DNA from: a virus
DNA: 64,000 nt
Direction: 5' to 3' (one strand)
IMG/VR virus record: IMGVR_UViG_3300014627_000002
Location: 13,618 to 77,617 of that record
Under the pieces are notes generated by a model that was not told the DNA's origin, ran no database searches, and was given only the letters and a program-made list of their open reading frames with translations. A program made the translations under genes and the position numbers. Below are positions 3,204-58,492 of the stretch, in pieces. Numbering within the stretch: the stretch's first letter is position 1; every line of letters starts with the position of its first letter.

Positions 3204-6200
3204 ATGCCATTCAACAATACTGCCCGTGCGGGTTTGCAAGTTTTTTCAGATGCTTTATCAGCACTGAAAAACAAAGTTTCCCCATCTCATGCACCAACTG
3301 GTGTATATGAATTTCAAGATGAGAAAATTACGCCAACCAAGCGCCAGAAGGCAAACAATGCGGCCGTAAGTCTGTTACGGCAATTACAGAATGAATCGGG
3401 GTTAAAGGCGACAGCTGAACAGAAGGTCACTTTATCGCGGTACACCGGTAAAGGGGGAAATTTAGAAGTAGAAGGGGTAAAGGGGAGCCAATATGAATAC
3501 TACACACCGGTCCCTTTAGCTAATGCACTGTGGGACCTCTTAAAAGAACATGGCTTTGACGGCGGCGCCGTACTCGATCCTTGCGCGGGGACTGGTATTT
3601 TTGCAGCTGGCCGACCTGAATCAGTGGTGATGCAGTCCGTAGAGCTTAATGATGTTTCTGGCGGTATTAATGCGTTGGTAAATGACCAGGCAAATCACAA
3701 TGTCATTGTAAGCCCTTTTGAGAAAATCGCTTCTCAGACGCAAGACAATGTTTATGATGCTGTTATTACTAATGTGCCGTTCGGTTCACGTGGAGATCGG
3801 GGCGATAATGCCCGCCATGATATTTATTCAGATGATGATTTAGACTCATACTTTGTTAAACGGTCAATTGACAAATTAAAGCACGGTAAACTGGCCGTAT
3901 TTATTGCTCACCCAAAATTACTTACGGGTGCCGGTCATAAGAAGTTCCGTCAATATATTTCTCTACGTGCTGAACTGGTGGGAGCATACCGCCTGCCTAA
4001 CAAGGTATTCCAAGCTACAGGCGCAGATGTAGTAACTGATGTTCTGGTATTTCGCAAACATACTGAAGAACTGACACAGAAAATTGAAAACCTATATGAC
4101 AATGGTTCACTTCAAGTACTTCAAGATTCCCGCATTCTGGATGCCGATATAATTGACGGTCGATATTACAAGGCTGAAGGTCAAAAAAACGTACTTGGCC
4201 AAAGTACGATAGTCAAACATGCAAAATTTAAAACAGATGTAGAAGCTGTTTTAAGTGATGAAAGCCTGCCGAATATCTTAAAACTGATTCGCCGTTTTCC
4301 AGACAGCCGTATTAATTATGGGATGCTGGAATTAACAGAAATGAAGCCAGTTTTACCGATACAAGAAGGTGATATTCGTGTCATCGGCGGCACTACATTT
4401 GAATATCAGGATGGTAAATGGATTAGCACAGGCCAGACAGCCACTTATAGTAATGCTGAAAGCTTTAGTAAGGCCCTCACAGCTTTTATGTCAGGCATGA
4501 CTTATGTTGATCTGATGGCTTATCAGAGTCATTGTGTGGCATCACATTACAAGTTATCTGCATGGGCTGGCCAGTTAATTGATGTAGTACAAAGCACAGG
4601 TGTAGAAACTTATGCACACTGGCTGGTCCAGTTTGCACTGTATGAAGCTTTACAGGCCGAAGCCTATAACAGCTATGCTCAGAACTATCCTAAGCTTACA
4701 AGTGCTTTAAAGGGCATCGCGGGGCAAGTTGGTAAAAAACCATATAAACATGCTTCAGTTAAGACCCTGGTAACGTTTAACAGTAAGGCTTTCGATAAAA
4801 ATTCAGCTGATGGCCTGTCAGCCTATTGGTATGGCAGCACTATTGAAATTGCACAGGCACTAGATGCCAAAGGCGCTTATGAAAATGCAATTTATATGGG
4901 TCGTGCTAAAGACTTTATGGTATCCGTTGATGAAATCCGGCAGACCGATCCTAATTTTGACCCATTGGCTAATGAAGATTATGCAATTTCAGGGGACGGT
5001 CAGTATGTCACGTTAAATCGGGACTATTACACGGGCAATCACGGCGAATTTTTACAGCAGATTGATGCACAGATTGAAGCCGCAACAGATCCTAAAATAC
5101 GTGCAAAACTGGTCCAGCAACGTAAAAAATCATTTGAGCATGTTGATTATGTCGATGTGGCCAATATTAATTTAGGTTTACGTGCTACCAACATTGATAT
5201 ACAGGTCAAAAGTGATTTTCTAAGCCTGTATGGTGGGGATGCAGTGACAGTCGATGAAGACGGTCGCATTCGCTTAAAAGACAAGCAAGAGCCATTAGAT
5301 CGCATTATCCGCATTATGAAGCGGGACGGGGTGCAAGGTGCTCAACATCGTTGGGTTCAAACGTTCTTCTTAAACCGTATCTTGGATTCAGTTAATAACA
5401 ATGTCCGCCTAACATTGAAGGCGAATAAGGATGAAGTATCTAAGCAGGATCATGACCTGGTATTTAAGGCTTTTTTAGAATATGCAAATGAGCTAGATGC
5501 AACCTTTAGTGCTTATCTAAAAGCCAATATCGGGTTTATGGAAGACCTAGATGCAAAAGTAAATGACCCAATGCATAAAGAAATGCAGAGTGAGCTAGAT
5601 ACTTCACCAGTAGAGGTCAAAGGCTTTGCACCTAAGTTTGCAACATTTAAAGCGATGCAGACTTATCAAAATGCAGAAGTACGCCGTTTAAGTCGCCGTT
5701 TTGAAGGAATTACCGGCTTTGATGTAGGTTTGGGTAAGACACTCACTTCAATTGCAGCTGCACAAAACCTGCATAATATTGGCGTTAAAAAGCGTACCTT
5801 GTTTGTGGTTCCATCACATACGATTTCTAAATGGTATCGTGATATGCAAATGTCGTTAGATGATTACAGTGATGTATTAGTCATCGGCTTAAAGGGCAAT
5901 ACACTAAGTTCGGTCAATAGTAGCCATTACGGTGCTGACTTAAACCTATTGCTTAGTGAACCCTATCGCAAGATCCTGATTACTAGTGATGCTTTCACTA
6001 TGATTCCGCTACGTGACCGCACCATTGAAAAATATTATGAAAGTAAAAAGGCAAAAATCGATTTTTCAAAAGATAAAGACCGAGAAAAATGGAACGCATT
6101 TATTGGCAAGAAAAAAGAACCACTTCAAAAAGATGTAGGCCGCCTACCATTTTTTGAGGACCTGAATATTGATAGCATCATTTTTGATGAAGCGCAGATG

Positions 6201-9200
6201 TTTAAAAATGGCGATGCCAGTGAAGGTTTTGGAAATTTCCAGTCTATTAAGGGCCTTTCATTATTAGCAGAAGCACAGTTATCGGACCGGGCAATTTCGG
6301 CCAAAATCAAGTCTGAATATGTTCGGGGTACTAACCCGCTTAAAGATGGTGTTGTATTGCTAAGTGCTACACCTGTAACCAATAGCCCGTCAGAAATTCT
6401 AACCATGCTGTCACTGGCCATAGGTGAGAAGAAAGCTAAAAATATGCTCGGTGGGGCTGCCATTGATTCTGTAGATGACTTTTTAAGTACTTTTGCTCAT
6501 ACCGAGTCAATTAGTGGGGTGGACCTGCTGGGTGCCGAACGTGCAGATGAAACCTTTACCGGATTTAAGAATGTCGAATTGCTTAAAAACGTTTTGCATA
6601 GTGTTGGAAACATTCAGACAGCGCGGGAAAATGATTTAAAAATTCCGGCTCAAGAAGATGTTAAAACAAATGTCAGTTTAGGTAGTGAAGACCGCCAGAC
6701 GCTTGCTGATCTGAAACGTGCATACAACATTGCCCGTCAAATGGGTAAAGGTGGGCCAGTCCTGGCAGATGAAGACGATATTAAGTTTTTGCATGAAATG
6801 ATGGGGAAACTTGGCGAATCTGAAACTTTGATCGGGCATCCATTTAACCTGATTACCAAAATGCAAGATTTGATCTTGATGGGAAGTGAGTCAGTACTTT
6901 CCCGAGCGATGTATGTCAATTACCTGCCTGAAGATCAAGAAAAGGCTCAAAAGGTTATTGATGACTTTAACAAAAAGCCAGTGAAGGTAACGTCTACTCG
7001 ATCCTTTCCATTGGTTGATAAAGCAGATGTAAAAATCAAAAAACGGGGAAAAACCATAGGTGATGCAGATGAACTTGAGATTACCGTTCGTGCTTTCCTT
7101 GATGAAGAAAATAACCGCATTGGCTTGACTGCAAACGATACAAAGGCAATTGCAGGACTAATGACCCTGGCAGATAAGGCTAAATTAGCCCTTAAACCTA
7201 AGCTGTCATCTAAAATGCAGGCACTTATTGATAATGTAAAAACAGAAATGGCTACGCCTAAACATAATGGTCACGCCAAGCAAATTATTTTCTGTGACAC
7301 ATTGGCCATGCATCACATTATCAAGCAGGCTTTGATTGAATACTGCGGAGTAGAAAAGTCCCGTATTGCAATTTTAAATGCTGCAATCAAGCCAGATGGC
7401 AGTAACGGCGCTGTTAAAAGTGAAGATGTTCAGGATATTCAGGACGGCTTTGCTACTGATAAATACACCATTGTCATTGCTAATAAGAAAGCTGATACCG
7501 GTATTGATCTGCAAAAAGGCACCCAGGCTATTCACCATTTAACAACCGGCTGGACACCTGATAGCTTGCAACAGCGTAATGGCCGTGGTGTACGTCAAGG
7601 TAATGAGCAAGAGCGCGTTAATGTGTATATGTATTCAGCAAATGGCTCATTTGATGAATATAAATTGCATGTGATTAATGGTAAATCAGACTGGATTAAT
7701 CAGTTAATGAATAAGGGAGCTACCGTATCTGGCACGCTGCAGGTATCTAGTGAGCTTACAGATGATGATTATGACCTGATGATTCAGGCAGACAGTGCCG
7801 AAGCCATTGAAGGGCTTTTAAAACAGCGTCAGGAACGCGAGAATCAAGCACGTCATGACCGGGCAGTTAAACATACTGATCTGTTAATCAAAATTGCAAA
7901 AAAAGCAGCGTCACAGGCAGACCGTACAGAGTCTAGTGTTGCTCAGGAAATCATTATTAAGGATTACGAAAAGTACATCACTTTAATGCGCCGTGATGCT
8001 AAGGCAGAGGACGCGGCTGAACGTAACCAGATCCTAGAGCAAAAGCAGGCCATTGTAAGTCAGTATGATAGTTATCTGAAAAATAACAGTGTTGAAAATT
8101 GGGATAGGGGTTTAAAGCGCAAGGCAGAGGAAAAAGGCCAGGCATCACTTTGGTTGTCTTCATTACATCATTCTGGTTTTGAAGTCGCTGCAACAGAGTT
8201 CAGTAAATTAGATGAGCAAGTTTTAAATTCTGATACCTCACTTTCAAGCCGTGCAAAAGCTAGTTTTCAGTCATTAAAACGTATGGCAGACAGTACACGT
8301 GAACAGCTTTTAAAATATGCAGACAGTCCATTTACTGATGAAGAACGGGCCATGTTACTTGATGGTACCGCCGTTCTTGATGAGAACCAGCAAATCTTAA
8401 AGCATGGTGATCTTTTAAAGGCAGAAGGAAGTAACGGCGCTATATACGGTATGCGTGTTATTGCTGAATCTCAAGACTACTATACTTTCACTGAAAGCTT
8501 TGTCCGTAATAGACAACCAATTGAACCGCATGAGCGTGATGCAGCAATTCAAAGCTTTATTGCTTATGAAACACAGTTGCTAAAAAAGAATGAGGTGTTC
8601 AGTTACGGTAGTTTAAATAGCGAAACATTAAACTCAAATAAACGCTTTAGCCGGGTTTATCCAGAGATCCAGACAGCAGTTGAAGAACAGTTGAAGGCAG
8701 AGCATGATAACTGGATTCACCAGAGTAGCGTATACAACAGTCCAGGACTCCAATTGAAGTCCAACCATGCTCTACACTGGCCAGAAATTACCTTTCCTCA
8801 ATTCTTTAAAAATAACTTGCAGCTGGCGACTGTTTTTAATGCGCCATTTTCAGGAATCATTGAAAGTATTGAACTCGGTGATGCAATTGCTCGAGTCAAA
8901 ATTCCTAACACTAAAGCGGACTTGGTGCAGCGTAAATATCCGATGAATCTAACTCGCTTGGCTGAGCAAATTTTTTCAGTAGCTGAAACAGAAAAAATTG
9001 CGGTAGATTTACAACATGCTGAATCTATTATCAATAATGAATTTATGTATTACTTTGCAGAGAAAGTAGATAAAGCTTTATCTGCATACTATAAGGGAAG
9101 TTTAAAGCTGCTTTATCCGCATCATACAGTCTTGACTGATGACCAAAAGGTAGAGATTGCAGAATATATTTTAGAACATGCTTTAAATGGCTTAGTAAGT

Positions 9201-9557
9201 TCTTATACACATCTAATGGAATGGGTACAGGAAAAGTCTGCATTTAAAGGAATTCTAAAGCTATATGCATTAGATGATAATGACCCCGAAGTTATTGTAA
9301 AACAGCATGTAAAACTACACGGCGGCATGGGTAAATTTAAGAATATTAAAATTACTGGTGTAGCTTTCTTGGGTACCGGCAGTTTTGGAGCAGCTTTCAA
9401 GTCAACCTATAAAGATGATATGAAGGCGTATGCTGACTCGATCCGTAAGCGTTGTGCTTGGGACAACCGCAATACCCGTTGGGTAGTTGAACCTGAAGTC
9501 ATGGTATGGATGATGAAACAGGACTGGTTTAATATGAATGAAGTAGAATTTTACTAA
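3204..9557 (+). CDS. giant N6-adenine methyltransferase / SNF2-family helicase fusion (P1 DarB-like anti-restriction protein)
   Basis: 2117-aa ORF. The N-terminus has gamma-class MTase motifs (LDPCAGTGIF, then ITNVPFG). Helicase motifs are GFDVGLGKT (~nt 5727), IIFDEAQ (~nt 6184) and QQRNGRGVRQG (~nt 7569). The architecture matches P1 DarB. Confidence 0.85.
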   Translation: MPFNNTARAGLQVFSDALSALKNKVSPSHAPTGVYEFQDEKITPTKRQKANNAAVSLLRQLQNESGLKATAEQKVTLSRYTGKGGNLEVEGVKGSQYEYYTPVPLANALWDLLKEHGFDGGAVLDPCAGTGIFAAGRPESVVMQSVELNDVSGGINALVNDQANHNVIVSPFEKIASQTQDNVYDAVITNVPFGSRGDRGDNARHDIYSDDDLDSYFVKRSIDKLKHGKLAVFIAHPKLLTGAGHKKFRQYISLRAELVGAYRLPNKVFQATGADVVTDVLVFRKHTEELTQKIENLYDNGSLQVLQDSRILDADIIDGRYYKAEGQKNVLGQSTIVKHAKFKTDVEAVLSDESLPNILKLIRRFPDSRINYGMLELTEMKPVLPIQEGDIRVIGGTTFEYQDGKWISTGQTATYSNAESFSKALTAFMSGMTYVDLMAYQSHCVASHYKLSAWAGQLIDVVQSTGVETYAHWLVQFALYEALQAEAYNSYAQNYPKLTSALKGIAGQVGKKPYKHASVKTLVTFNSKAFDKNSADGLSAYWYGSTIEIAQALDAKGAYENAIYMGRAKDFMVSVDEIRQTDPNFDPLANEDYAISGDGQYVTLNRDYYTGNHGEFLQQIDAQIEAATDPKIRAKLVQQRKKSFEHVDYVDVANINLGLRATNIDIQVKSDFLSLYGGDAVTVDEDGRIRLKDKQEPLDRIIRIMKRDGVQGAQHRWVQTFFLNRILDSVNNNVRLTLKANKDEVSKQDHDLVFKAFLEYANELDATFSAYLKANIGFMEDLDAKVNDPMHKEMQSELDTSPVEVKGFAPKFATFKAMQTYQNAEVRRLSRRFEGITGFDVGLGKTLTSIAAAQNLHNIGVKKRTLFVVPSHTISKWYRDMQMSLDDYSDVLVIGLKGNTLSSVNSSHYGADLNLLLSEPYRKILITSDAFTMIPLRDRTIEKYYESKKAKIDFSKDKDREKWNAFIGKKKEPLQKDVGRLPFFEDLNIDSIIFDEAQMFKNGDASEGFGNFQSIKGLSLLAEAQLSDRAISAKIKSEYVRGTNPLKDGVVLLSATPVTNSPSEILTMLSLAIGEKKAKNMLGGAAIDSVDDFLSTFAHTESISGVDLLGAERADETFTGFKNVELLKNVLHSVGNIQTARENDLKIPAQEDVKTNVSLGSEDRQTLADLKRAYNIARQMGKGGPVLADEDDIKFLHEMMGKLGESETLIGHPFNLITKMQDLILMGSESVLSRAMYVNYLPEDQEKAQKVIDDFNKKPVKVTSTRSFPLVDKADVKIKKRGKTIGDADELEITVRAFLDEENNRIGLTANDTKAIAGLMTLADKAKLALKPKLSSKMQALIDNVKTEMATPKHNGHAKQIIFCDTLAMHHIIKQALIEYCGVEKSRIAILNAAIKPDGSNGAVKSEDVQDIQDGFATDKYTIVIANKKADTGIDLQKGTQAIHHLTTGWTPDSLQQRNGRGVRQGNEQERVNVYMYSANGSFDEYKLHVINGKSDWINQLMNKGATVSGTLQVSSELTDDDYDLMIQADSAEAIEGLLKQRQERENQARHDRAVKHTDLLIKIAKKAASQADRTESSVAQEIIIKDYEKYITLMRRDAKAEDAAERNQILEQKQAIVSQYDSYLKNNSVENWDRGLKRKAEEKGQASLWLSSLHHSGFEVAATEFSKLDEQVLNSDTSLSSRAKASFQSLKRMADSTREQLLKYADSPFTDEERAMLLDGTAVLDENQQILKHGDLLKAEGSNGAIYGMRVIAESQDYYTFTESFVRNRQPIEPHERDAAIQSFIAYETQLLKKNEVFSYGSLNSETLNSNKRFSRVYPEIQTAVEEQLKAEHDNWIHQSSVYNSPGLQLKSNHALHWPEITFPQFFKNNLQLATVFNAPFSGIIESIELGDAIARVKIPNTKADLVQRKYPMNLTRLAEQIFSVAETEKIAVDLQHAESIINNEFMYYFAEKVDKALSAYYKGSLKLLYPHHTVLTDDQKVEIAEYILEHALNGLVSSYTHLMEWVQEKSAFKGILKLYALDDNDPEVIVKQHVKLHGGMGKFKNIKITGVAFLGTGSFGAAFKSTYKDDMKAYADSIRKRCAWDNRNTRWVVEPEVMVWMMKQDWFNMNEVEFY

Positions 9558-10554: not shown

Positions 10555-10571
10555 GGTAAATAGACAAAAAT

Positions 10572-10598
10572 AGCCCTATAAATTAATAGGGCTTTTTT
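10572..10598 (+). terminator. rho-independent terminator
   Basis: AGCCCTA-TAAATTAA-TAGGGCT followed by TTTTTT. It ends directly at the next ATG. Confidence 0.7.
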
Positions 10599-13078: not shown

Positions 13079-13967
13079 TAAGTCACTTAAAGAAATCCAA
13101 AAACTTTTAGGTTCGATAGGATTATATACGGGAGCAATTGATGGTTTTTGGGGATGGGGTAGCTATAATGCGATTTTAACCCTTTCAGCCCTGTGTAAAC
13201 CTAATTCTAAGTCTTCTAAAATCAAGTCCAGTGATATTAAAAATATTTCTAAAGAGATACAAAAAATATTGGTAGAACATCATCAATATTTTGGTGTTAT
13301 TGATGGAATATTCGGAAAAAACTCAATTGCCGGTTTAAATAATCTTATTCCAGCGCCTAAAGTTACTGAGGAAAGTTTAAAGAAAATCTATAAAAACTGC
13401 TCACCAGGCTTTGCTGATTTTATTAATTCTTTTGCTGCACAGTATCAGTTGAACACTAAAGCGGATCTATGTGCTTTTCTGGCCAATAATATTCATGAGT
13501 CATCTGGCTTTACCAGCTTGCGTGAAAATATGAATTATCGCCCTGCCCGCTTATTAGAAGTTTTCCCGAAGTATTTTAAAACACTGGCAGAAGCGACAGA
13601 CGTAGTAAAACGTGGGCCTATAGCTATTGCTGACGTGGTATACGGTGGCCGCATGGGTAACGGACGTAACAATGGAGATGGATATAAGTACCGTGGTGGC
13701 GGCTGTAATCATTTAACCGGTTTAGATAACTATACCCTTTGCAGTATTGGTATAGGACTAGGTAATCAGCTTGTTGATAATCCGGATCTTATTACCCAGC
13801 CTGAATATGCGGTTAAATCAGCTTACTGGTTCTGGAATAAAAACCGCTGTAGCCGGGTAGCTAATCAAGGTAATTTTGAAGCAGCTTGCAGAATTGTAAA
13901 TGGTGGAACTAACGGTCTGTCTGAACGTCATGCCCTACATATTAAAGCCTGGTCTGTCCTGTTTTAA
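13065..13967 (+). CDS. endolysin: two peptidoglycan-binding repeats plus a GH19 (chitinase-like) catalytic domain
   Basis: The repeats are LKEIQKLLGSIGLYTGAIDGFWG and SKEIQKILVEHHQYFGVIDGIFG. GH19-like blocks are NIHESSGF and YKYRGGGCNHLTGLDNY. The start is placed at ATG 13065 behind SD TAAGGAA. Confidence 0.85.
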   Translation: MTDINKSLKEIQKLLGSIGLYTGAIDGFWGWGSYNAILTLSALCKPNSKSSKIKSSDIKNISKEIQKILVEHHQYFGVIDGIFGKNSIAGLNNLIPAPKVTEESLKKIYKNCSPGFADFINSFAAQYQLNTKADLCAFLANNIHESSGFTSLRENMNYRPARLLEVFPKYFKTLAEATDVVKRGPIAIADVVYGGRMGNGRNNGDGYKYRGGGCNHLTGLDNYTLCSIGIGLGNQLVDNPDLITQPEYAVKSAYWFWNKNRCSRVANQGNFEAACRIVNGGTNGLSERHALHIKAWSVLF

Positions 13968-43159: not shown

Positions 43160-43200
43160 TAGGAATAGAAAAAAAACTGATTTTTCAGCTTCACCAAAAT
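43160..43200 (+). promoter_or_regulatory. late-type promoter candidate (AGGAATA family)
   Basis: TAGGAATAGAAAAAAAACTGA, then CAAAAT at positions 36-41. Confidence 0.55.
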
Positions 43201-43244
43201 AAGCCTTTTAGAAGTCAAAGACGCAAAACTAAAAGGGCTATTTT

Positions 43245-48875: not shown

Positions 48876-48916
48876 CAGGAATAGCTTTTAAACGCCGTTT
48901 TTATCTTGGCCAGAAT
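48876..48916 (+). promoter_or_regulatory. late-type promoter candidate (AGGAATA family, weaker A-run)
   Basis: CAGGAATAGCTTTTAAACG, then CAGAAT at positions 36-41. It lies upstream of the spanin genes. Confidence 0.4.
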
Positions 48917-49458: not shown

Positions 49459-49490
49459 AAAAAAAAGCGATTTTCTGTATCAACCACAAT
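49450..49490 (+). promoter_or_regulatory. late-type promoter candidate (AGGAATA family)
   Basis: CAGGAATAGAAAAAAAAGCGA, then CACAAT at positions 36-41. The motif contains the spanin stop codon. Confidence 0.5.
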
Positions 49491-49523
49491 AGCCCTAGAT
49501 AGAAATTATTTAGGGCTATTTTC

Positions 49524-50394: not shown

Positions 50395-51258
50395 ATGACT
50401 AGAGTATTGACGCCGCGTGAATCCGCTGCTCAGGCAATCGGAAAGCTTATTTTAGACTTTCGCTACTGGTTAGTACCTGAAACTAGCCTTCTAGCACGTT
50501 GGAAAACCCAGCAATTTGCTTATTTAGTCGCTGAAGGCCGCATGATTGACGATGCTAAGGCGCTAATAGACAGCATGCGTAAAGCTGAAATGACGGTCCC
50601 AGCCCTTATTTTTGCAATCAAGCATGTAGCTGCCCCGCCCGATCTGTCACAAGTGGTAGGTGTACCGTTTGAGCGAAAAGTAATACTCCCGTCTGACCCG
50701 TTAAAGCGTCAGGTATTACTACGCACAGAGCCAAGAACCTATCACATACAGTTCATGTTCTTGTGTAATGACCCGGATAGTGCAAATGCTTTTTCAAGCC
50801 AGTTTGCGTCTTATATTCGCTTAATAGAAAAACGCCGTATTCATGTCGAATACTTTTTGTCGCCTGATGTAAAACAGGCATGGCACCTCACCATTTTTGA
50901 TAATTCGATTTATCCAGACGAAATTGCTATTGAGGAAACCAATTTAACCGGTGCACTGATTGATTTTGATATGTCCGGACTGGTACCGCGTGCAATTAAA
51001 GGATTACCGCCGTTATATCCTGAAGATTTCGGACCGGGCAGTAATGTCGGGGGTGACGCAAATAATCCGAATAATCCAGGGAACGGCGGCAATAACCCGG
51101 GAGAAGGTAATGGTGAACCGCCAAAGCCGGGTACCGGTGCCGGATGGGGCAAAGTACTTGAAGCCAATATTCATACTGAGCCAGCACATCGTTTTATTCG
51201 TGTGAAACAAGATCCAGTAACCGGCCTGGTTACTGAAGAACTTCTTACAGAACTATAG
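50395..51258 (+). CDS. hypothetical virion-module protein with a Gly/Pro/Asn-rich C-terminal segment
   Basis: ATG 50395 sits behind AAGGGG. The low-complexity segment is PGSNVGGDANNPNNPGNGGNNPGEGNGEPPKPGTGAGWG. Confidence 0.6.
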   Translation: MTRVLTPRESAAQAIGKLILDFRYWLVPETSLLARWKTQQFAYLVAEGRMIDDAKALIDSMRKAEMTVPALIFAIKHVAAPPDLSQVVGVPFERKVILPSDPLKRQVLLRTEPRTYHIQFMFLCNDPDSANAFSSQFASYIRLIEKRRIHVEYFLSPDVKQAWHLTIFDNSIYPDEIAIEETNLTGALIDFDMSGLVPRAIKGLPPLYPEDFGPGSNVGGDANNPNNPGNGGNNPGEGNGEPPKPGTGAGWGKVLEANIHTEPAHRFIRVKQDPVTGLVTEELLTEL

Positions 51259-51267
51259 GCGGGAATT

Positions 51268-51810
51268 ATGAAGAATATATTCATTGATTGCCGTGTGGGT
51301 ATGTATGCAGAGAATGCAGTGCGTGTACTGGCCACTGTAGATGTTCAGAATGACACAGTAACCATTTCTCAGATTATGCCGTATTACCCGCCGGCAGACC
51401 CATTTAAGGATAAAACACCTCAACAAGTCGAAATAATCAAGATGATTAATAAGAACTCTGTAGTGGTGGTAGACAATCCTGACGCATTCAACAATTGGGA
51501 CCTAAGATTTATAGAAGAACAGCATTTGGGAGAAGCTGTTCAAGCCTATTACCTGCTGGAAAATACCAAGTCCTTAGTCCTGGATAAAGCCCTGACAAAT
51601 TTTAATCCTAGAAACATTTTAGAAACTCGAAAAATGGACATGAAGGGTAATGTTTATGAGCTTAACAGTGATGAAATCAATAACACCTATATGGTGGTGC
51701 TGATTGTATGCTGGGCTGCCGTTAAAGCACGTAATACGCACTCTATTACGGTGAATGAGTCACCTACTCAGGAAGATACAGACGAGTTTTTTGTACCTTT
51801 TTCAGTGTAG
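51268..51810 (+). CDS. hypothetical protein; small-terminase candidate by position only
   Basis: 180-aa ORF directly upstream of terL. Confidence 0.5.
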   Translation: MKNIFIDCRVGMYAENAVRVLATVDVQNDTVTISQIMPYYPPADPFKDKTPQQVEIIKMINKNSVVVVDNPDAFNNWDLRFIEEQHLGEAVQAYYLLENTKSLVLDKALTNFNPRNILETRKMDMKGNVYELNSDEINNTYMVVLIVCWAAVKARNTHSITVNESPTQEDTDEFFVPFSV

Positions 51811-51821
51811 TGGGGGCTTAA

Positions 51822-53804
51822 ATGGCTTTAAAGAGTTTAGAAAGCCTGCCCGAATGGAAAAGGGCTAGTCATCGGTATCGCTATGATATTAGCCGTTTTG
51901 CGATTGAAGGCTGCGGCATGGACTATACCGTTCAGCAAGAGCAGCTGTTTAATTCAGTAGCGCAAGACGGGAGCCGGACCAGTGTTTCATCTGGTCACGG
52001 CTGCTTTGCCAAAGGCACCCCCGTTATGTTGGATACAGGGGAAATCATACCTGTTGAAGATGTAACGATTAATCATTTCTTAAAAGGTGATGATGGCCAG
52101 AGCCGCCGTGAGGTGCTGTACCTGGAGCGCGGCCGTGAAGAAATGTTCAAGTTTACTTATGCCGATGGAACCGGGCATACGTTTAACAAATCACATATTC
52201 TGGTTTTACGCCATCTGGATACTCTTGAGGACCGTGAAATAACGGTAGGCTCATGGCTGAATTTAAAGCCCGTAGAGCGCTATAGATATGCTGTTTTGCG
52301 CCGTTGTTTGGGTGGTGTGTACCTTATTCCGATTCAGAGCGCTGAATCACTTGGGATAGGGGACTATTACGGCTTTCTGGTTGATGGAAATTACAAGTTC
52401 TTAGCTGGTGACGGCACTATATTCCACAATACCGGTAAAACTCGTTCAGCGGGCATTGTGGCGCTATGGCACCTATGTTTTTTCCCGCATTCAGTCATGA
52501 TGTTTTCAGCGCCACAGATCGAGCAGCTGAGAAAACTTGTATGGAAAGAAATTGAAATCTGTCTGAGCTTGATGCGTAACGGTCGGCTGGCTTGGCTGGC
52601 TGATTATGTGCAAGTACTGGCAGAAAGCGTCTATATCAAGGGTCATCAAAAGACCTGGCATGTTTATGCTAAAACCGCACCCAAAGGGAACCCACAAGCA
52701 CTGGCAGGGAACCACGGCGATTATTTAACAATATGGGTTGATGAAGCTGCCGCCGTAGACAATGGGGTATTTGATGTATTAACCGGTGCATTAACCCATC
52801 CAGATAACCGGATGGTTTTGACGTCACAGCCTGCAAAACCGGCAGGATTCTTTTTTGACACCCATCACAAGCTATCTAAGGCAAACGGCGGTGTATGGAA
52901 TGCCCTAACGTTTAGCTCAGAAAAGACCAGGCTGGTTGCATGGTCCAAGATCATAGAAGCCAGATTGCAATATGGCTCACGTGATGACCCGCAATACATG
53001 ATTCGTATTCTTGGAGAGTTTCCGGATCTTGCAGGCGAGTTTCTGGTTACACAGCGCATGGCTGAGAAGGCTTTTCAGGGTACGGCCATTCCTAAAAAGT
53101 ATAAAGGTTATGGTTATTTTATTCTGGTGGACGTCGGTGGGGGCGTAGGTCGTGATGATTCAACCATTACCATTGCTAAAGTATGGGGTTCGGCACAATG
53201 GGGTACACAGGCCCGCCGTGCTGATGTAATCCGTATTCCGCTATGTAAAAATAATGATGATATTCATGAACTCACAGCAAAAATCAATGAATGCTTGATT
53301 GAATACCCGAATGCTACGTTATTGGTTGATGCGAACGGCGCCGGATCTGGCTTGGCACAGAACCTCACCAGCTTGGGCATTTATTATAAAAAGATTCATT
53401 GGGGTGGCCAGTGCTTTAGTAATAAAAGCCGGAAGGAATATGTCAATAAACGTGCACAAGCATATGTATGTTTGAGCCGTGCTATTCAGCAGGACCGGTT
53501 CAAGGTGCGTACAGCCTTCTTGAAGTCAAAGGTAACAGAGCAGCTTACACGTATACCGTACACATTTGATGAGCAAGCCCGGTTCAAAATTCTGTCTAAA
53601 GAAGAAATGCGCCGCAAAGGAATTACCTCACCAGACGTTGTAGATACTTTTGCGTTTATTTTCTTGGAGGGCATGAACTATACGCCGTATGAAGAAGTCG
53701 GGACCGTTAATCCGGATACTTATGACACAGAAGGCCAAAAGTCACAGACAGAACCAGCAACGGCGGTTGATAGTGTCAATCAAATGGCCGCATTAATGAG
53801 TTAG
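51822..53804 (+). CDS. terL: terminase large subunit, interrupted by a mini-intein in the Walker A loop
   Basis: Removing residues 61-203 joins ..SVSSGHG to TGKTRSAG, giving a GKT P-loop. A Walker B-like YLTIWVDEAA is present. The C-terminal RNase H-like nuclease has LVDVGGG, LLVDANGAG and PDVVDTF. Confidence 0.85.
   Translation: MALKSLESLPEWKRASHRYRYDISRFAIEGCGMDYTVQQEQLFNSVAQDGSRTSVSSGHGCFAKGTPVMLDTGEIIPVEDVTINHFLKGDDGQSRREVLYLERGREEMFKFTYADGTGHTFNKSHILVLRHLDTLEDREITVGSWLNLKPVERYRYAVLRRCLGGVYLIPIQSAESLGIGDYYGFLVDGNYKFLAGDGTIFHNTGKTRSAGIVALWHLCFFPHSVMMFSAPQIEQLRKLVWKEIEICLSLMRNGRLAWLADYVQVLAESVYIKGHQKTWHVYAKTAPKGNPQALAGNHGDYLTIWVDEAAAVDNGVFDVLTGALTHPDNRMVLTSQPAKPAGFFFDTHHKLSKANGGVWNALTFSSEKTRLVAWSKIIEARLQYGSRDDPQYMIRILGEFPDLAGEFLVTQRMAEKAFQGTAIPKKYKGYGYFILVDVGGGVGRDDSTITIAKVWGSAQWGTQARRADVIRIPLCKNNDDIHELTAKINECLIEYPNATLLVDANGAGSGLAQNLTSLGIYYKKIHWGGQCFSNKSRKEYVNKRAQAYVCLSRAIQQDRFKVRTAFLKSKVTEQLTRIPYTFDEQARFKILSKEEMRRKGITSPDVVDTFAFIFLEGMNYTPYEEVGTVNPDTYDTEGQKSQTEPATAVDSVNQMAALMS
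52002..52430 (+). mobile_element. class-1 mini-intein (143 aa, no homing endonuclease domain)
   Basis: It starts CFAKGTPVMLDTGEIIPVEDV (Cys1). The internal His block is ..NKSHILVL. It ends GDYYGFLVDGNYKFLAGDGTIFHN and is followed by Thr+1. The insertion is exactly inside the ATPase P-loop. Confidence 0.85.
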
Positions 53805-53843
53805 GAATAGATAAAAAAGCAGATCAGGTAAAACCGCTATAAC
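53802..53843 (+). promoter_or_regulatory. late-type promoter candidate (AGGAATA family)
   Basis: TAGGAATAGATAAAAAAGCAG, then TATAAC near positions 37-42. The motif starts with the terL stop codon. Confidence 0.45.
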
Positions 53844-53871
53844 TCACTTATCAAATTATTGAGTTATAGCC

Positions 53872-54615
53872 ATGCTGAAATCATTAAAAAATTTCGCTTT
53901 TTCATCGCTTAGAGTCCAAGGCAACGTTATTTTAAATAAGCTAAGTAAAAAACTGGCAGGGGAGTGCTTAGTTAGTCCAAAACACGCTCAAAGCATCTTT
54001 AATGGTTCAGCTATCCAGCCAGAAAATAAAAATAGCGGTTATTTGATTCTTGTTCATGTAGGGAGTGACAGCCTTCACCAACACTCAGTCATTACAGTTG
54101 CTCAGGTGTGGGGTGAAACTTCATGGCCAAATCAAACTCGCCGTGCTGATGTAATCCGCATTTCATCATCTAAAAATAATGATATTCATGAGCTCATAGC
54201 AACGATTAATGAATGCCTGGCTGATTACCCGAATGCTACGGTATTAATCAATGCTTATGGCGCCGGATCTGGCTTGGCGCAGAATCTCACCAGCTTGGGA
54301 ATTTACTATAAAGAAATTCATTGGGGCGGGCCTTGTTTTGTACGCCTGAATAAAAATGAATATGTAAATCGTCGTAGCCAAGCTTATCTAGGCTTGGATG
54401 GTGCAATAAGACAGGGCAGATTCAAAATTAAAGCCAATATCGATCAGCAAAGTGTCATTAAAGAGTTATGCCAGATTCACTATAAATTCGATAAAGAAAA
54501 TCGCTGGAATGTACTGTCAATTGCAGATCATAAAGAAAAAGGAATCTGTATAACCGGGCTTATTGAAACATTCGCATATATCTATTTGGAAGGTATTTCA
54601 TATTTAACTGTTTAG
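53872..54615 (+). CDS. stand-alone paralogue of the terminase nuclease domain with substituted acidic residues
   Basis: Residues ~33-245 align with TerL residues ~405-640, with shared blocks RRADVIRI, NECL.DYPNAT, GAGSGLAQNLTSLGIYYK.IHWGG and ETFAYIYLEG. The two genes share 20-nt identical DNA runs. Confidence 0.75.
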   Translation: MLKSLKNFAFSSLRVQGNVILNKLSKKLAGECLVSPKHAQSIFNGSAIQPENKNSGYLILVHVGSDSLHQHSVITVAQVWGETSWPNQTRRADVIRISSSKNNDIHELIATINECLADYPNATVLINAYGAGSGLAQNLTSLGIYYKEIHWGGPCFVRLNKNEYVNRRSQAYLGLDGAIRQGRFKIKANIDQQSVIKELCQIHYKFDKENRWNVLSIADHKEKGICITGLIETFAYIYLEGISYLTV

Positions 54616-54685
54616 TCTGGCATATCAAAAAAAGGCAAAACAGCAAACGAGTTACAAAGCACTAAATAGCTTAGAGAATCAGCAC

Positions 54686-56353
54686 ATGAGTAAGACGATT
54701 CAGTTAAAACTAACAAATATCGGTATTTCACACTGTCTAAATGCAGAAACCAGCGGAATTAAACTTGAGCTGGACCGCATTGTTTTTAGTTCAGATAATT
54801 TTGAATCCGTTGATTATGATCCACATACAGAAATTAAAAATATTATTCATGAAGCTCCAATCGCTGTCGGTGGGAAGTCTGAGGACCAGCGCAGCTTACG
54901 CTTCGTTTCTTATATAAATTCACCCACAGAACTAGAAATTCGTTCACTCGGGATTTATACAAAAGATAATGTTTTATTCGCCGTTGCAAGCGTAGCCGCA
55001 GGAAACTTATTCAAAGTTTATAGTGGCGTTAGCTTTGTCGCAGCTTTTGGAATGAGCATTGCACCCGCATTTGCAAATGTTATTGAAATCAAAACTGATC
55101 AAAACGCAGCGCTTGCTTTGGTTATGATGAATGATCATGAAAGGCATGCTAATCCCCATCCTCAGTACGCGCAGCAGCTCAACAATTTAGTAAAGGCGCT
55201 CTATCACGTAAATTCATGGCATGGTACTAACAGTGCTGAATATGATCCGGCAATCGCATTATTTCCCCTGTTTGGCTATGAAACAACGTGGACATTATGG
55301 CCCTATGTCCCGAAAGGTGTAGGGACCATTCAAGACCCTATAGGCGCTGTATCGGGAATAAGCTCAGGTGCCAATGTTCAAATAGCCTCTACCCGTATTT
55401 GGCAGCGTTTAGAAGACGGCGCAACGGGTCCCACTTACTCACTGACGGTTGATAAAAATTCTGTAAATGAAGGGGATAGTCTGGAATTTACTTTGCAGAC
55501 GACAGGTTTAGCTGCAGGTACTCCCGTAGACTGGACTATAACCGGTGTTCAGGCTAGTGATATTTTACCAGCTGCATTAACAGGTCAGTTTGTAATTGAT
55601 GCTACGGGTAAAGCCAAGTTAAGCGTCCAGGTGGTTGAAGACAATAAAACTGACGGCAATAAAACGCTCATACTGGCGCTGACTTACATCAAAAATAAGC
55701 AGGTGTCTGTATTTATAAATGACACAAGCAAATATCCTGAAGGCCAAGAAGTATATTATCAGGGCACACATTCAATAAACGTAGAACCTAATCAAATCAT
55801 TGTCATTGATATGTATGCCCCGGGCGGCGGTGGCGGTGGTTCAATTTATTCTGGCAGTTCACAAAATCCTGTAGGAAAAGATGGCGGTAATAACATTCTT
55901 GCGCTTGGTGAAGTTCAATTTATTGCCGGTGGTGGTAAAGCTGGTACCGGTGGCGTTTGGGGTAATGGTTCATCATTCACTAATGGTGAAGCTGGCACAG
56001 GCGGCATTAATACGATTGCAGATAACCCGCAATTTATTATTCTGGAAAATAAAAAGGGTAATTCTGCTGTAATCGGTTCACGTTGGAGCCGTCAACCAGG
56101 TGGTGCCGGTATATTATCTAGCATCGGGACATTAAATGGTGGCGGTGCTGGGGGCTGGGGTATTGGGGATGAAAAATGGTCATACGGCGGTGGCGGTGGC
56201 GGTGGTGGCCGCTTAAAAGTCCAGTTTACTAATACAAATGAGGAACCTATAACTTTAAATCTAGTCATAGGTGCATTTGGCGCTGGTTGGAAAGGTGCAG
56301 GTAACGCTGGGGATGATGGTGGTATTGGTTTTGCGATAGTCAATACACTGTAA
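54686..56353 (+). CDS. tail fibre protein (tail-collar-type N-terminus, Calx-beta-like middle, glycine-rich C-terminal domain)
   Basis: The N-terminus IQLKLTNIGISHCLNAETSGIKLELDRIVFSSDNF resembles P2 gpH-type fibre N-termini. The middle segment is NEGDSLEFTLQTTG..GTPVDWTITG. The C-terminus is rich in GGGGG runs. Confidence 0.65.
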   Translation: MSKTIQLKLTNIGISHCLNAETSGIKLELDRIVFSSDNFESVDYDPHTEIKNIIHEAPIAVGGKSEDQRSLRFVSYINSPTELEIRSLGIYTKDNVLFAVASVAAGNLFKVYSGVSFVAAFGMSIAPAFANVIEIKTDQNAALALVMMNDHERHANPHPQYAQQLNNLVKALYHVNSWHGTNSAEYDPAIALFPLFGYETTWTLWPYVPKGVGTIQDPIGAVSGISSGANVQIASTRIWQRLEDGATGPTYSLTVDKNSVNEGDSLEFTLQTTGLAAGTPVDWTITGVQASDILPAALTGQFVIDATGKAKLSVQVVEDNKTDGNKTLILALTYIKNKQVSVFINDTSKYPEGQEVYYQGTHSINVEPNQIIVIDMYAPGGGGGGSIYSGSSQNPVGKDGGNNILALGEVQFIAGGGKAGTGGVWGNGSSFTNGEAGTGGINTIADNPQFIILENKKGNSAVIGSRWSRQPGGAGILSSIGTLNGGGAGGWGIGDEKWSYGGGGGGGGRLKVQFTNTNEEPITLNLVIGAFGAGWKGAGNAGDDGGIGFAIVNTL

Positions 56354-56357
56354 AGAA

Positions 56358-56398
56358 CAGGAATACCGAAAAATCCAGTTTAGGGACTAAATCATAAT
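56358..56398 (+). promoter_or_regulatory. late-type promoter candidate (AGGAATA family) overlapping a terminator hairpin
   Basis: CAGGAATACCGAAAAATCCAG, then CATAAT at positions 36-41. The -10 lies in the loop of the 56384-56417 hairpin. Confidence 0.4.
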
Positions 56399-56417
56399 AG
56401 GTTTAGTCCTTTTTTTT
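56384..56417 (+). terminator. rho-independent terminator after the tail fibre gene
   Basis: GGACTAAA..TTTAGTCC stem followed by TTTTTTTT. Confidence 0.65.
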
Positions 56418-56427
56418 GCGCAAAGCC

Positions 56428-56712
56428 ATGTTAAATGAATACCACAATGCAGTACGGCGCTATATAGAGTCTAACCGCAAGAAAGCTGAGTTTGGTGCTC
56501 GTTTATTTCATTACCAGATTGGTGAGGATGAAGTAAATGATCCGTCATTAGCAAGTTATCGAGCATATAACACCAATGCACATACCGATATTATTGTGCT
56601 GGCCAGCGGCAATTCTTTTTCATTTCAGCCCTTACCTCTCAAGATTATCACCTTGCCGGATTTGAGCATTTTAATTCAGTTGCAGAAGCGATACGGGGTA
56701 AACAATGGTTGA
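56428..56712 (+). CDS. hypothetical protein
   Basis: ATG 56428 (the listed ORF uses TTG 56416). No clear SD. Confidence 0.4.
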   Translation: MLNEYHNAVRRYIESNRKKAEFGARLFHYQIGEDEVNDPSLASYRAYNTNAHTDIIVLASGNSFSFQPLPLKIITLPDLSILIQLQKRYGVNNG

Positions 56713-58409: not shown

Positions 58410-58450
58410 TAGGAATATAAAAAAACAGGGGTTTTTTTTATTGCCAGAAT
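58410..58450 (+). promoter_or_regulatory. late-type promoter candidate (AGGAATA family)
   Basis: TAGGAATATAAAAAAACAGGG, then CAGAAT at positions 36-41. It lies 43 nt upstream of the capsid-like gene. Confidence 0.55.
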
Positions 58451-58492
58451 AGGCGTATCGGTGATGCCAATAACGGCAATGAGGATACATCT

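Follow-up and report, generated by a model that had tools for sequence, protein, structure and literature searches.

Large terminases (TerL) are among the best-studied and most conserved enzymes of phages and are prime targets of bacterial immune sensors. The gene described here lies directly downstream of terL in a stretch of viral DNA of 64,000 nt (IMG/VR record IMGVR_UViG_3300014627_000002, positions 13,618 to 77,617, hereafter the window) and encodes a stand-alone protein, hereafter the copy, that resembles the nuclease domain of the adjacent terminase and is probably devoid of its catalytic activity. Solved TerL nuclease domains (E217 8dkr, Sf6 gp2, G20c/P74-26, T4/RB49 gp17 and SPP1 G2P) have the same RNase H/RuvC-like fold as the copy; in sequence, the known protein that comes closest to it is the TerL (P1/D6 PacB-type) of Acinetobacter phage ABMM1. 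Unlike these domains, the copy is not fused to an ATPase domain, has no C-terminal tail and has its carboxylates and the equivalent of the Sf6 K428 lysine replaced.

Three other systems resemble the copy in part. In the first case, the packaging ATPase gp16 of phage phi29 reportedly carries a vestigial nuclease domain at its C-terminus. This domain shares with the copy a terminase-type RNase H-like fold and the loss of catalytic residues, and probably binds rather than cuts; it is however joined to the ATPase in one polypeptide and is not known to have a counterpart elsewhere in its genome, whereas the copy is an extra gene next to a fully equipped TerL. The second case relates to UL15.5 of herpes simplex virus 1 (HSV-1), a separate product that is colinear with the C-terminal nuclease part of the terminase subunit UL15. 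Here too the nuclease portion of a terminase occurs as a separate polypeptide besides the full-length enzyme, but this product is read in frame from the UL15 gene itself, so that it does not differ in sequence and has an intact active site, and it is no diverged, inactivated paralog. The third is T4 vs.8, an uncharacterised stand-alone paralog of the TerL ATPase domain that is found in certain phage taxa only (bioRxiv 10.64898/2026.04.30.721860). Compared by description, vs.8 and the copy are both separate, taxon-restricted phage genes derived from a single domain of the large terminase; vs.8 however represents the ATPase domain with Walker A and B kept, whereas the copy represents the nuclease domain with its catalytic residues lost, and no sequence relationship between the two is expected. 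The copy is not of the vs.8 type, defined by ATPase homology with both Walker motifs kept, the window open reading frame (ORF) being nuclease-like only and the longer homologs of loci L017 and L026 (see below) having degenerate Walker motifs. Literature searches for inactive terminase paralogs or pseudonucleases returned nothing relevant and no description of the family to which the copy belongs.

BLASTP comparison of the copy with the TerL encoded next to it aligned residues 28-244 with TerL residues 403-620, with 117 of 218 positions identical (54%), one gap of a single residue and an E-value of 1e-79. The original prediction of a nuclease-domain paralog without ATPase domain is thus borne out, except that the match, which had been extended to about TerL residue 640, ends at ca. 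620, leaving the last ca. 40 residues of TerL without a counterpart. No ATPase-like segment occurs in the 247 amino acids (aa) of the copy, in which a leader of 27 residues that does not align with TerL, and for which a helix is predicted with low confidence, precedes an RNase H/RuvC-like domain. An AlphaFold2 model built on a 46-sequence alignment has a mean predicted local distance difference score (pLDDT) of 89.2 and a predicted template modelling score (pTM) of 0.85, with just the N-terminal ca. 28 residues poorly defined. When this model was compared with the PDB using Foldseek, the top matches were all TerL nuclease domains (E from 4e-9 to 1e-5), in the order E217 8dkr (E=4e-9, template modelling score 0.63), Sf6 gp2, G20c and RB49/T4 gp17, followed by UL89 of human cytomegalovirus and SPP1 G2P; in BFVD, matches were mostly to proteins of full-length terminase size and those with a name were annotated as terminases. 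In tblastn searches the copy also matched the PacB terminases of phages ABMM1, Rb1 and D6. Pfam returned only a sub-threshold match to DUF7452 (E=0.032; 15 bits for a cut-off of 28.2 bits) and PHROGs no match.

The copy has one possible start, its frame being open only from position 53863, and this frame is shifted relative to that of terL. A TerL-copy fusion produced by readthrough or frameshift was considered and rejected because the ORF begins only after a gap of 67 nt from the terL stop and its frame does not extend further than 9 nt upstream of the ATG.

The substitutions D437 to H62, D503 to N127 and D608 to E232 reported in the original prediction were recovered as claimed by BLASTP and by alignment. 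Where TerL nucleases have three metal-coordinating carboxylates (D294/D347/D429 in G20c, D244/D296/D444 in Sf6), the copy thus has His, Asn and Glu. An alignment of the 25 TerL nuclease domains of the clade showed D437, D445-D446, D503, D605 and D608 to be invariant (25/25). None of the 15 copies has the first catalytic Asp, which gives way to H, N, S, K or V, and 14 lack the second, mostly with N but also with S, I or M in its place, the one at locus L033 being the sole copy that retains Asp; the third column is occupied by D in nine and by E in six. The DD445-446 pair is mostly lost, and copies have either lost the active-site loop DVGGGVGRDD that borders the DNA groove or carry a degenerate version of it. 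K593, which aligns with Sf6 K428, is present in at least 90% of TerLs and in 38% of copies, with I217 in that of the window. Profile and sequence matches to PDB chains placed D503/N127 on the 'VVAD' of G20c and the 'YLWD' of Sf6, and D608/E232 on the 'SPNLAD' of Sf6, which correspond in chain numbering to G20c D347 and to Sf6 D296 and D444. These matches were weak and local and served solely to map the two columns, while the first (D437/H62) was assigned from its invariance in TerLs and its position on the strand rather than by direct structural superposition. Because the residues are invariant in 25 TerLs and align with Sf6 D296/D444 and G20c D347, the catalytic assignment can be regarded as sound, and the metal-binding carboxylates of the copy as replaced.

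These substitutions bear on the possibility that the copy is still a nuclease relying on other residues such as H62, D66, E232 or D207. E232 is a conservative replacement of the third Asp, metal binding by the His in the first column and the nearby D66 is conceivable, and D207 is conserved in the family. The free variation of the first two catalytic columns is however incompatible with a conserved alternative site, neither H62 nor D66 is conserved in other copies, and in G20c the D294N, D347N and D429N mutants have the lowest nuclease activity, the residues being called indispensable (PMC5389553). A nuclease with a relocated active site is therefore considered extremely improbable. Residues conserved in TerLs and copies alike (W151, G152, C155, F156, N166, R168, A171, K185, D207 and R211) correspond to core or scaffold positions.

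The copy is no one-off but belongs to an unnamed gene family that is located right after terL in a subset of Acinetobacter phages or phage-plasmids. A word-indexed protein search retrieved only its own 90% cluster (four variants, all of 247 aa and 91-98% identical), and the same type of search with a family profile gave four proteins only. An exhaustive phmmer search of 1.84 billion representatives returned 82 matches, corresponding to full-length terminases and to a series of short proteins that align end to end with the copy (P0009, 256 aa; P0012 and P0013, 234 aa; P0014, 297 aa; P0015, 205 aa; P0018, 242 aa; P0019, 261 aa; P0025 and P0041, 254 aa). Stand-alone homologs of 205-277 aa, or of 567-573 aa in one lineage, occur in loci of distant Acinetobacter phages or prophages and, wherever the genomic context is readable, directly 3' of terL (loci L011, L013, L017, L018, L026, L030, L032, L033, L038, L039 and L041). 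These loci originate from Acinetobacter sp. ANC 3813 (L011), Acinetobacter sp. CFCC 10889 (L017), metagenomes (L013, L041), a metagenome-assembled genome (L018) and IMG/VR contigs (L026, L030, L032, L033); the count leaves out P0013, P0014 and P0019, as well as P0015, which lies on a short contig without a called upstream gene. A survey of relatives, as had been proposed, thus found the tandem arrangement in several distant lineages.

Where the downstream sequence reaches far enough, the next late gene, encoding a tail fibre, follows the homolog, and terL is of intein-bearing length (see below) at every homolog locus with the whole terL on the contig. The named hosts are Acinetobacter species only and most of the non-fragment contigs are 70-88 kb long. 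Each ORF has its own start and leader, and start codon, leader and length are consistent among lineages; the one named database member is labelled 'hypothetical protein'. When the family is defined by a separate ORF of ca. 200-280 aa right after terL, by homology to the TerL nuclease and by replacement of the first and second catalytic Asp, it includes the window ORF, P0009, P0012-15, P0018, P0019, P0025, P0041 and the copies of L011, L013, L018, L030, L032, L033 (which keeps the second Asp), L038 and L041.

The lineage with the longer product deserves separate mention. Its gene (L017:6876-8597 and L026:6876-8579) encodes a leader, then a nuclease-like domain with 32% identity to residues 404-625 of the cognate TerL, and then an ATPase-like domain with 28% identity to TerL 178-400. 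In the latter, Walker A reads TSKG (TGKT in TerL) and Walker B DV (DE in TerL), and the protein appears to be a permuted pseudo-terminase in which both domains are predicted to be dead.

Selection was estimated from the ratio (omega) of nonsynonymous (dN) to synonymous (dS) divergence. Between L017 and L026, the nuclease-like part displays an omega of 0.19 (dS 0.37) and the ATPase-like part of 0.51, and between the L030 and L032 copies omega is 0.23 (dS 0.67), for values of 0.01-0.04 in the cognate terL genes of both pairs. In the window, a tract of the copy that is shared with terL (see below) gave an omega of 0.17 for a dS of 0.61. No stop or frameshift was found in any copy-bearing lineage, despite saturated dS in the regions flanking this tract. 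Since omega is ca. 0.2 in deep pairs and an intact ORF of similar length is found in every lineage, the family is, over the long term, under moderate purifying selection, evolving ca. 10 times faster than TerL. That it represents a real, non-catalytic and selectively maintained paralog family is considered very probable.

A different situation is found among the nine collinear loci of the window's phage, which represent five haplotypes. The ORF of 247 aa is intact in all nine, with 43 segregating sites distributed as 17/10/16 over codon positions 1 to 3, corresponding to 30 nonsynonymous (N) and 13 synonymous (S) changes, and with pairwise omega ranging from 0 to 1.1. Neighbouring genes have an omega of 0-0.1, at most 0.19 (orf286), and five of them pooled (orf287, orf180 for the putative TerS, terL, fibre555 and orf94) total 17 N : 91 S (Fisher p=3e-10 for the comparison with the copy). 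According to the original prediction, its interpretation would fail with an ORF disrupted or absent in close relatives or with a dN/dS near 1. The frame is indeed unbroken in all nine loci and in distant lineages, but the gene is absent from many relatives; likewise, omega is low in distant lineages but not significantly so in the window's clade, as detailed below. The haplotypes are themselves mosaic, since L007 carries the alleles of L008/L010 up to ca. 54246 and those of the window from ca. 54285. Differences between the two main haplotype blocks amount to 21 N : 4 S, as compared to 9 N : 9 S at the other sites (Fisher p=0.02).

Similarity between copy and terL is patchy at the DNA level, as originally noticed. 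Over TerL codons 464-529 and copy codons 89-153, there are 33 mismatches in 195 nt, the proportion of synonymous differences is 0.42 and third-position identity is 0.67-0.80 over most of the tract. On both sides, the sequences are ca. 50% identical, with a third-position identity of ca. 0.27, which is the random level, a dS of at least 2.6 and a dN of ca. 0.5. The two shared 20-mers that had been pointed out are real: CGCCGTGCTGATGTAATCCG is found at 53214 in terL and 54139 in the copy, and GGCGCCGGATCTGGCTTGGC at 53337 and 54259, respectively. Because a tract of ca. 83% identity is bordered by saturated flanks (dS 0.61 versus at least 2.6), these sequences indicate gene conversion between terL and the copy. 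Within the tract, an island of 18 nt around codon 127, the codon facing D503, has 8 mismatches and is bordered by 15 and 20 nt without any mismatch (binomial P=0.006, uncorrected for the choice of this segment), a suggestion, but no more, that a dead active-site patch was kept despite homogenisation with terL.

For each copy, the TerL encoded in the same genome is the closest sequence, or nearly the closest, and other copies are much more distant. Identity to the own TerL, compared with the mean of all TerLs, is 53.5% versus 43% in the window, 66% versus 52% in L013 and 62% versus 49% in L018, and a neighbour-joining tree recovered no supported clade of copies, with weak deep support. Both observations would be accounted for if the adjacent terL had converted the copy again and again, or if duplication had occurred more than once.

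Taken together, the best overall explanation, to which we give an even chance, is that the copy is a stand-alone paralog, without catalytic activity, of the nuclease domain found in the PacB-type TerL of the same phage. Several points weigh against it. In the window's clade, omega of the copy is ca. 0.64, not significantly below 1 (p=0.16-0.5), and the chance that 43 random substitutions produce no stop is 0.10-0.17, so that in this clade the gene evolves almost neutrally. The TerL-copy alignment revealed no residue conserved only in copies apart from one Ile/Leu column, and hence nothing that points to a newly acquired active or binding site. Conversion could follow mechanically from the presence of two homologous genes in tandem instead of reflecting selection for mimicry, and the neighbour-joining tree does not discriminate between one origin and several duplications with subsequent conversion. 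Finally, within the flanks that were fetched, a second copy is missing from about two thirds of related terL loci, which implies that the copy is not a core component of packaging.

Some of these points would be expected if the copy were a decaying duplicate, i.e. a functionless remnant of a partial duplication or recombination of terL in the window's lineage, transcribed merely by lying between a late promoter and the fibre gene, and open by chance. Near-neutral omega, segregating sites spread evenly over codon positions and the lack of copy-specific conserved residues all agree with this, as does the frequent loss in relatives, including in a background with ca. 99% identical flanks. One haplotype further carries the radical changes W85C and R90C where the window TerL has W and R, the latter (R466) being conserved in at least 90% of TerLs, and GC content is 38% in the copy versus 46% in terL (window mean 41%), which is consistent with relaxed constraint or AT drift. 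Decay is however less easily reconciled with an ORF that has remained intact in the nine close loci and in every distant carrier through hundreds of substitutions without stop or frameshift, with an omega of only ca. 0.2 both in the conversion tract and within two pairs of lineages that are independent of each other, and with a start codon, leader and length that are consistent between lineages. The frame has also been preserved since the conversion event, which is far older than the split of the haplotypes (dS 0.61 versus 0.05-0.09). Both the functionless remnant and its chance transcription are therefore viewed as quite unlikely, and a recent relaxation of constraint possibly occurred in the window's clade.

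The distribution of the gene is best illustrated by loci L013 and L014, which are 99.0% identical over 1372 nt of terL and 98.9% over 1049 nt of the fibre gene. Between the two genes, L013 has a copy-bearing segment of ca. 860 nt (7987-8847) where L014 has 53 nt (1373-1425). Since near-identical phages differ in its presence, the copy is dispensable and constitutes an exchangeable, non-essential cassette. The L013 copy is no fresh duplicate, being just 73% identical in nt to the matching region of terL (as read from the ca. 99% identical terL of L014). In phages ABMM1, Rb1 and D6, the whole genome contained a single match each and no second copy. The element of A. lwoffii BE44 is another relative without the copy.

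The regulatory context of the copy was inspected next to that of other genes of the window. The motif AGGAATA-N3-AAAA occurs nine times in the window for 0.12 occurrences expected by chance, always on the + strand and in eight of nine cases in intergenic regions ahead of gene blocks, and is probably the late promoter of the phage or an activator site. A related site at 48877 has a poorer fit. An A/T-rich, -10-like hexamer usually follows the motif by ca. 27 nt; after terL, a TATAAC-like hexamer starts 27-28 nt past the end of AGGAATA, in the window and in relatives. The original prediction had assigned this motif to the copy as its own promoter. While the motif is real, in relatives without the copy (L015, L023-25, L028, L031 and L035) it also follows the terL stop, with the start of the fibre gene ca. 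70 nt further on, where it would drive that gene. No second promoter motif was found in the 70-nt gap between copy and fibre gene, which suggests that both are co-transcribed, and the copy is best read as the first gene of a late fibre operon rather than as one that has a promoter to itself.

The 91 nt from 53790 to 53880, which include the motif, an inverted repeat and the ATG, are identical in all haplotypes, whereas the coding sequence varies at 5.8% of sites. The inverted repeat ends 1 nt before the ATG. An RNA leader hairpin was considered, but the left arm of the repeat coincides in part with the -10-like hexamer, so that a large portion may remain untranscribed. More generally, a strong inverted repeat or hairpin (-12 to -18 kcal/mol) precedes the first gene after six of the motifs. 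These repeats differ in sequence among sites, end from a few to ca. 35 nt before the ATG and could be either RNA leaders or DNA operators; no clear Shine-Dalgarno sequence was seen by the first genes concerned.

How might such a protein act? The copy would be made late in infection alongside TerL and, judging from its residues, would be unable to cut DNA. It would instead act by binding, imitating the nuclease domain of TerL and taking a site normally used by this domain, either in the assembly of terminase and portal (the TerL ATPase ring, the portal or the small terminase subunit TerS) or on a factor that targets TerL. By occupying this site, the mimic would temper or shield the cutting activity or the assembly of the terminase. 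A protein partner seems likelier than DNA because the isolated nuclease domain of P74-26 TerL neither binds nor cleaves DNA detectably, the grip on DNA residing in the ATPase domain (PMC5389665). This specific mechanism, a TerL mimic that modulates packaging, is put forward tentatively and has somewhat less than an even chance of being correct; it is nonetheless favoured ahead of a role in conflict, which is itself placed ahead of functionless decay in the window's lineage.

The same data speak to a variant in which the dead domain would bind the pac site or a fresh DNA end and protect or mark it without cutting. The fold is retained, basic and polar residues are shared with TerL (N166, R168, K185 and R211) and the gene is placed late, beside terL. 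Such a factor nevertheless appears very unlikely, since the isolated TerL nuclease domain lacks detectable DNA binding (PMC5389665), the loop lining the groove is degenerate or deleted in copies, and the gene is dispensable in near-identical phages.

In a conflict, the copy would serve as a decoy or sponge for whatever targets the terminase, such as host immunity that senses it (Avs1-3, Upx) or interference encoded by satellites, or would act as a poison subunit against rival motors. Its patchy, moron-like distribution with recent gain or loss, its rate of protein evolution relative to TerL and the fact that each copy tracks its cognate TerL are in line with this, and the 567-573-aa version, with its dead nuclease-like and degenerate ATPase-like domains, resembles a possible poison or decoy subunit. 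Several defence sensors are moreover known to recognise terminase, and for some Avs2 proteins a nuclease domain is sufficient to elicit a response (bioRxiv 10.64898/2026.04.30.721860). On the other hand, SeAvs3 is reported to read 'immutable' active-site residues, those that are absent from the copy, which would make it a poor decoy, and EcAvs2 is triggered by the ATPase domain and not by the nuclease domain (bioRxiv 10.64898/2026.04.30.721860). A nuclease-like domain that binds a sensor could also trigger rather than block it, no signal of positive selection was detected (the 21 N : 4 S between haplotypes A and B is not significantly above neutral) and a late-type promoter fits poorly with prophage-encoded exclusion. 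A conflict gene is on the whole unlikely, and an Avs3-type decoy in particular is disfavoured by the absence of the residues reported as being read by Avs3. In its broadest form, which we judge no less doubtful, this scenario would involve a family of dead terminase mimics, most of them with a nuclease domain only and those of one lineage circularly permuted with both domains dead, which phages would deploy late where the packaging machine is contested, be it as decoys or as poison subunits. Such mimics would shield TerL from host sensors or from interference by satellites, or sabotage the motor of a co-infecting relative, with conversion from terL keeping the mimic current and selection keeping its active site dead.

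Coordinates of the features are given in Table 1. The product of terL matches PHROG 2 ('terminase large subunit') and, in Pfam, gives a weak Terminase_6N match together with a Hint (intein) domain; by tblastn, its nearest cultured relatives are the terminases of Acinetobacter phage vB_AbaM_ABMM1, Xanthomonas phage Rb1 and the P1-like phage D6 (PacB). Its Walker A motif is split by a mini-intein of 143 aa (window 52002-52430, residues 61-203; GHG|C...HN|TGKT), which is bordered by Cys61 and His-Asn203, is followed by Thr and matches Hom_end_hint in Pfam. TerL has the same length in most relatives, ABMM1 included, and P0011 is a homolog without intein that reads GHGTGKT at Walker A. Elsewhere in the window, a 2117-aa ORF (3204-9557) combines an N6-adenine methyltransferase domain with a SNF2/helicase domain, which is the architecture of the anti-restriction protein DarB of P1; this ORF and the PacB-type TerL both suggest an Acinetobacter phage or phage-plasmid distantly related to P1. 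A 435-aa ORF (1377-2684) has a strong Pfam match to inorganic pyrophosphatase (InPase, PF18823; E=7e-46), an uncommon function in phage. Near-identity DNA searches of phage and plasmid collections with positions 51000-56500 gave no match.

Table 1. Position in the window of the copy, of terL and of associated sequence features
Feature	Position	Strand	Description
terL	51822..53804	+	660 aa, PacB-type large terminase; mini-intein in P-loop; carboxylates D437/D503/D608 intact
Nuclease-domain-coding part of terL	53028..53681	+	residues 403-620; paralogous template of the copy
Conversion partner in terL	53211..53408	+	codons 464-529
Promoter-like motif AGGAATA-N3-AAAA	53803..53816	+	overlaps terL stop codon
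Inverted repeat of 11 bp, GCTATAACTCA / TGAGTTATAGC	53836..53870	+	arms 53836-53846 and 53860-53870; 13-nt loop; fold -15.1 kcal/mol
-10-like hexamer TATAAC	53838..53843	+	starts 28 nt past the end of AGGAATA; putative role, from locus comparison
Stand-alone TerL-nuclease-like gene (copy)	53872..54615	+	247 aa; BLASTP, AlphaFold2, Foldseek
Codon 62, CAT (His)	54055..54057	+	column of first catalytic Asp, TerL D437
Conversion tract in copy	54136..54330	+	codons 89-153; ca. 83% nt identity to terL 53211-53408
Codon 127, AAT (Asn)	54250..54252	+	column of second catalytic Asp, TerL D503 = G20c D347 = Sf6 D296
Codon 232, GAA (Glu)	54565..54567	+	column of third catalytic Asp, TerL D608 = Sf6 D444
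Tail-collar fibre gene	54686..56353	+	70-nt gap after the copy
AGGAATA-N3-AAAA sites	3132, 10531, 43161, 49451, 53803, 56359, 58411, 63207; 736	+	736 is intragenic
Inverted repeats behind motifs	10560-10598, 43190-43244, 49470-49520, 53836-53870, 56362-56392, 58430-58470		

What is new here is a recurrent family of stand-alone and probably dead TerL-nuclease proteins encoded by terL's side, for which no named Pfam or PHROG family exists that covers the copy. The gene is optional and taxonomically narrow, and its locus offers a clear case of conversion between two paralogs in tandem, apparently with an inactivated active-site patch left out. With L013 and L014 as a natural presence/absence pair and with cultured Acinetobacter relatives at hand, the question of its role is directly testable. 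If the copy modulates cutting or assembly, it would represent a new type of accessory factor for headful packaging, namely a pseudoenzyme regulator; if it is a decoy or a poison subunit, it would define a new class of phage conflict genes.

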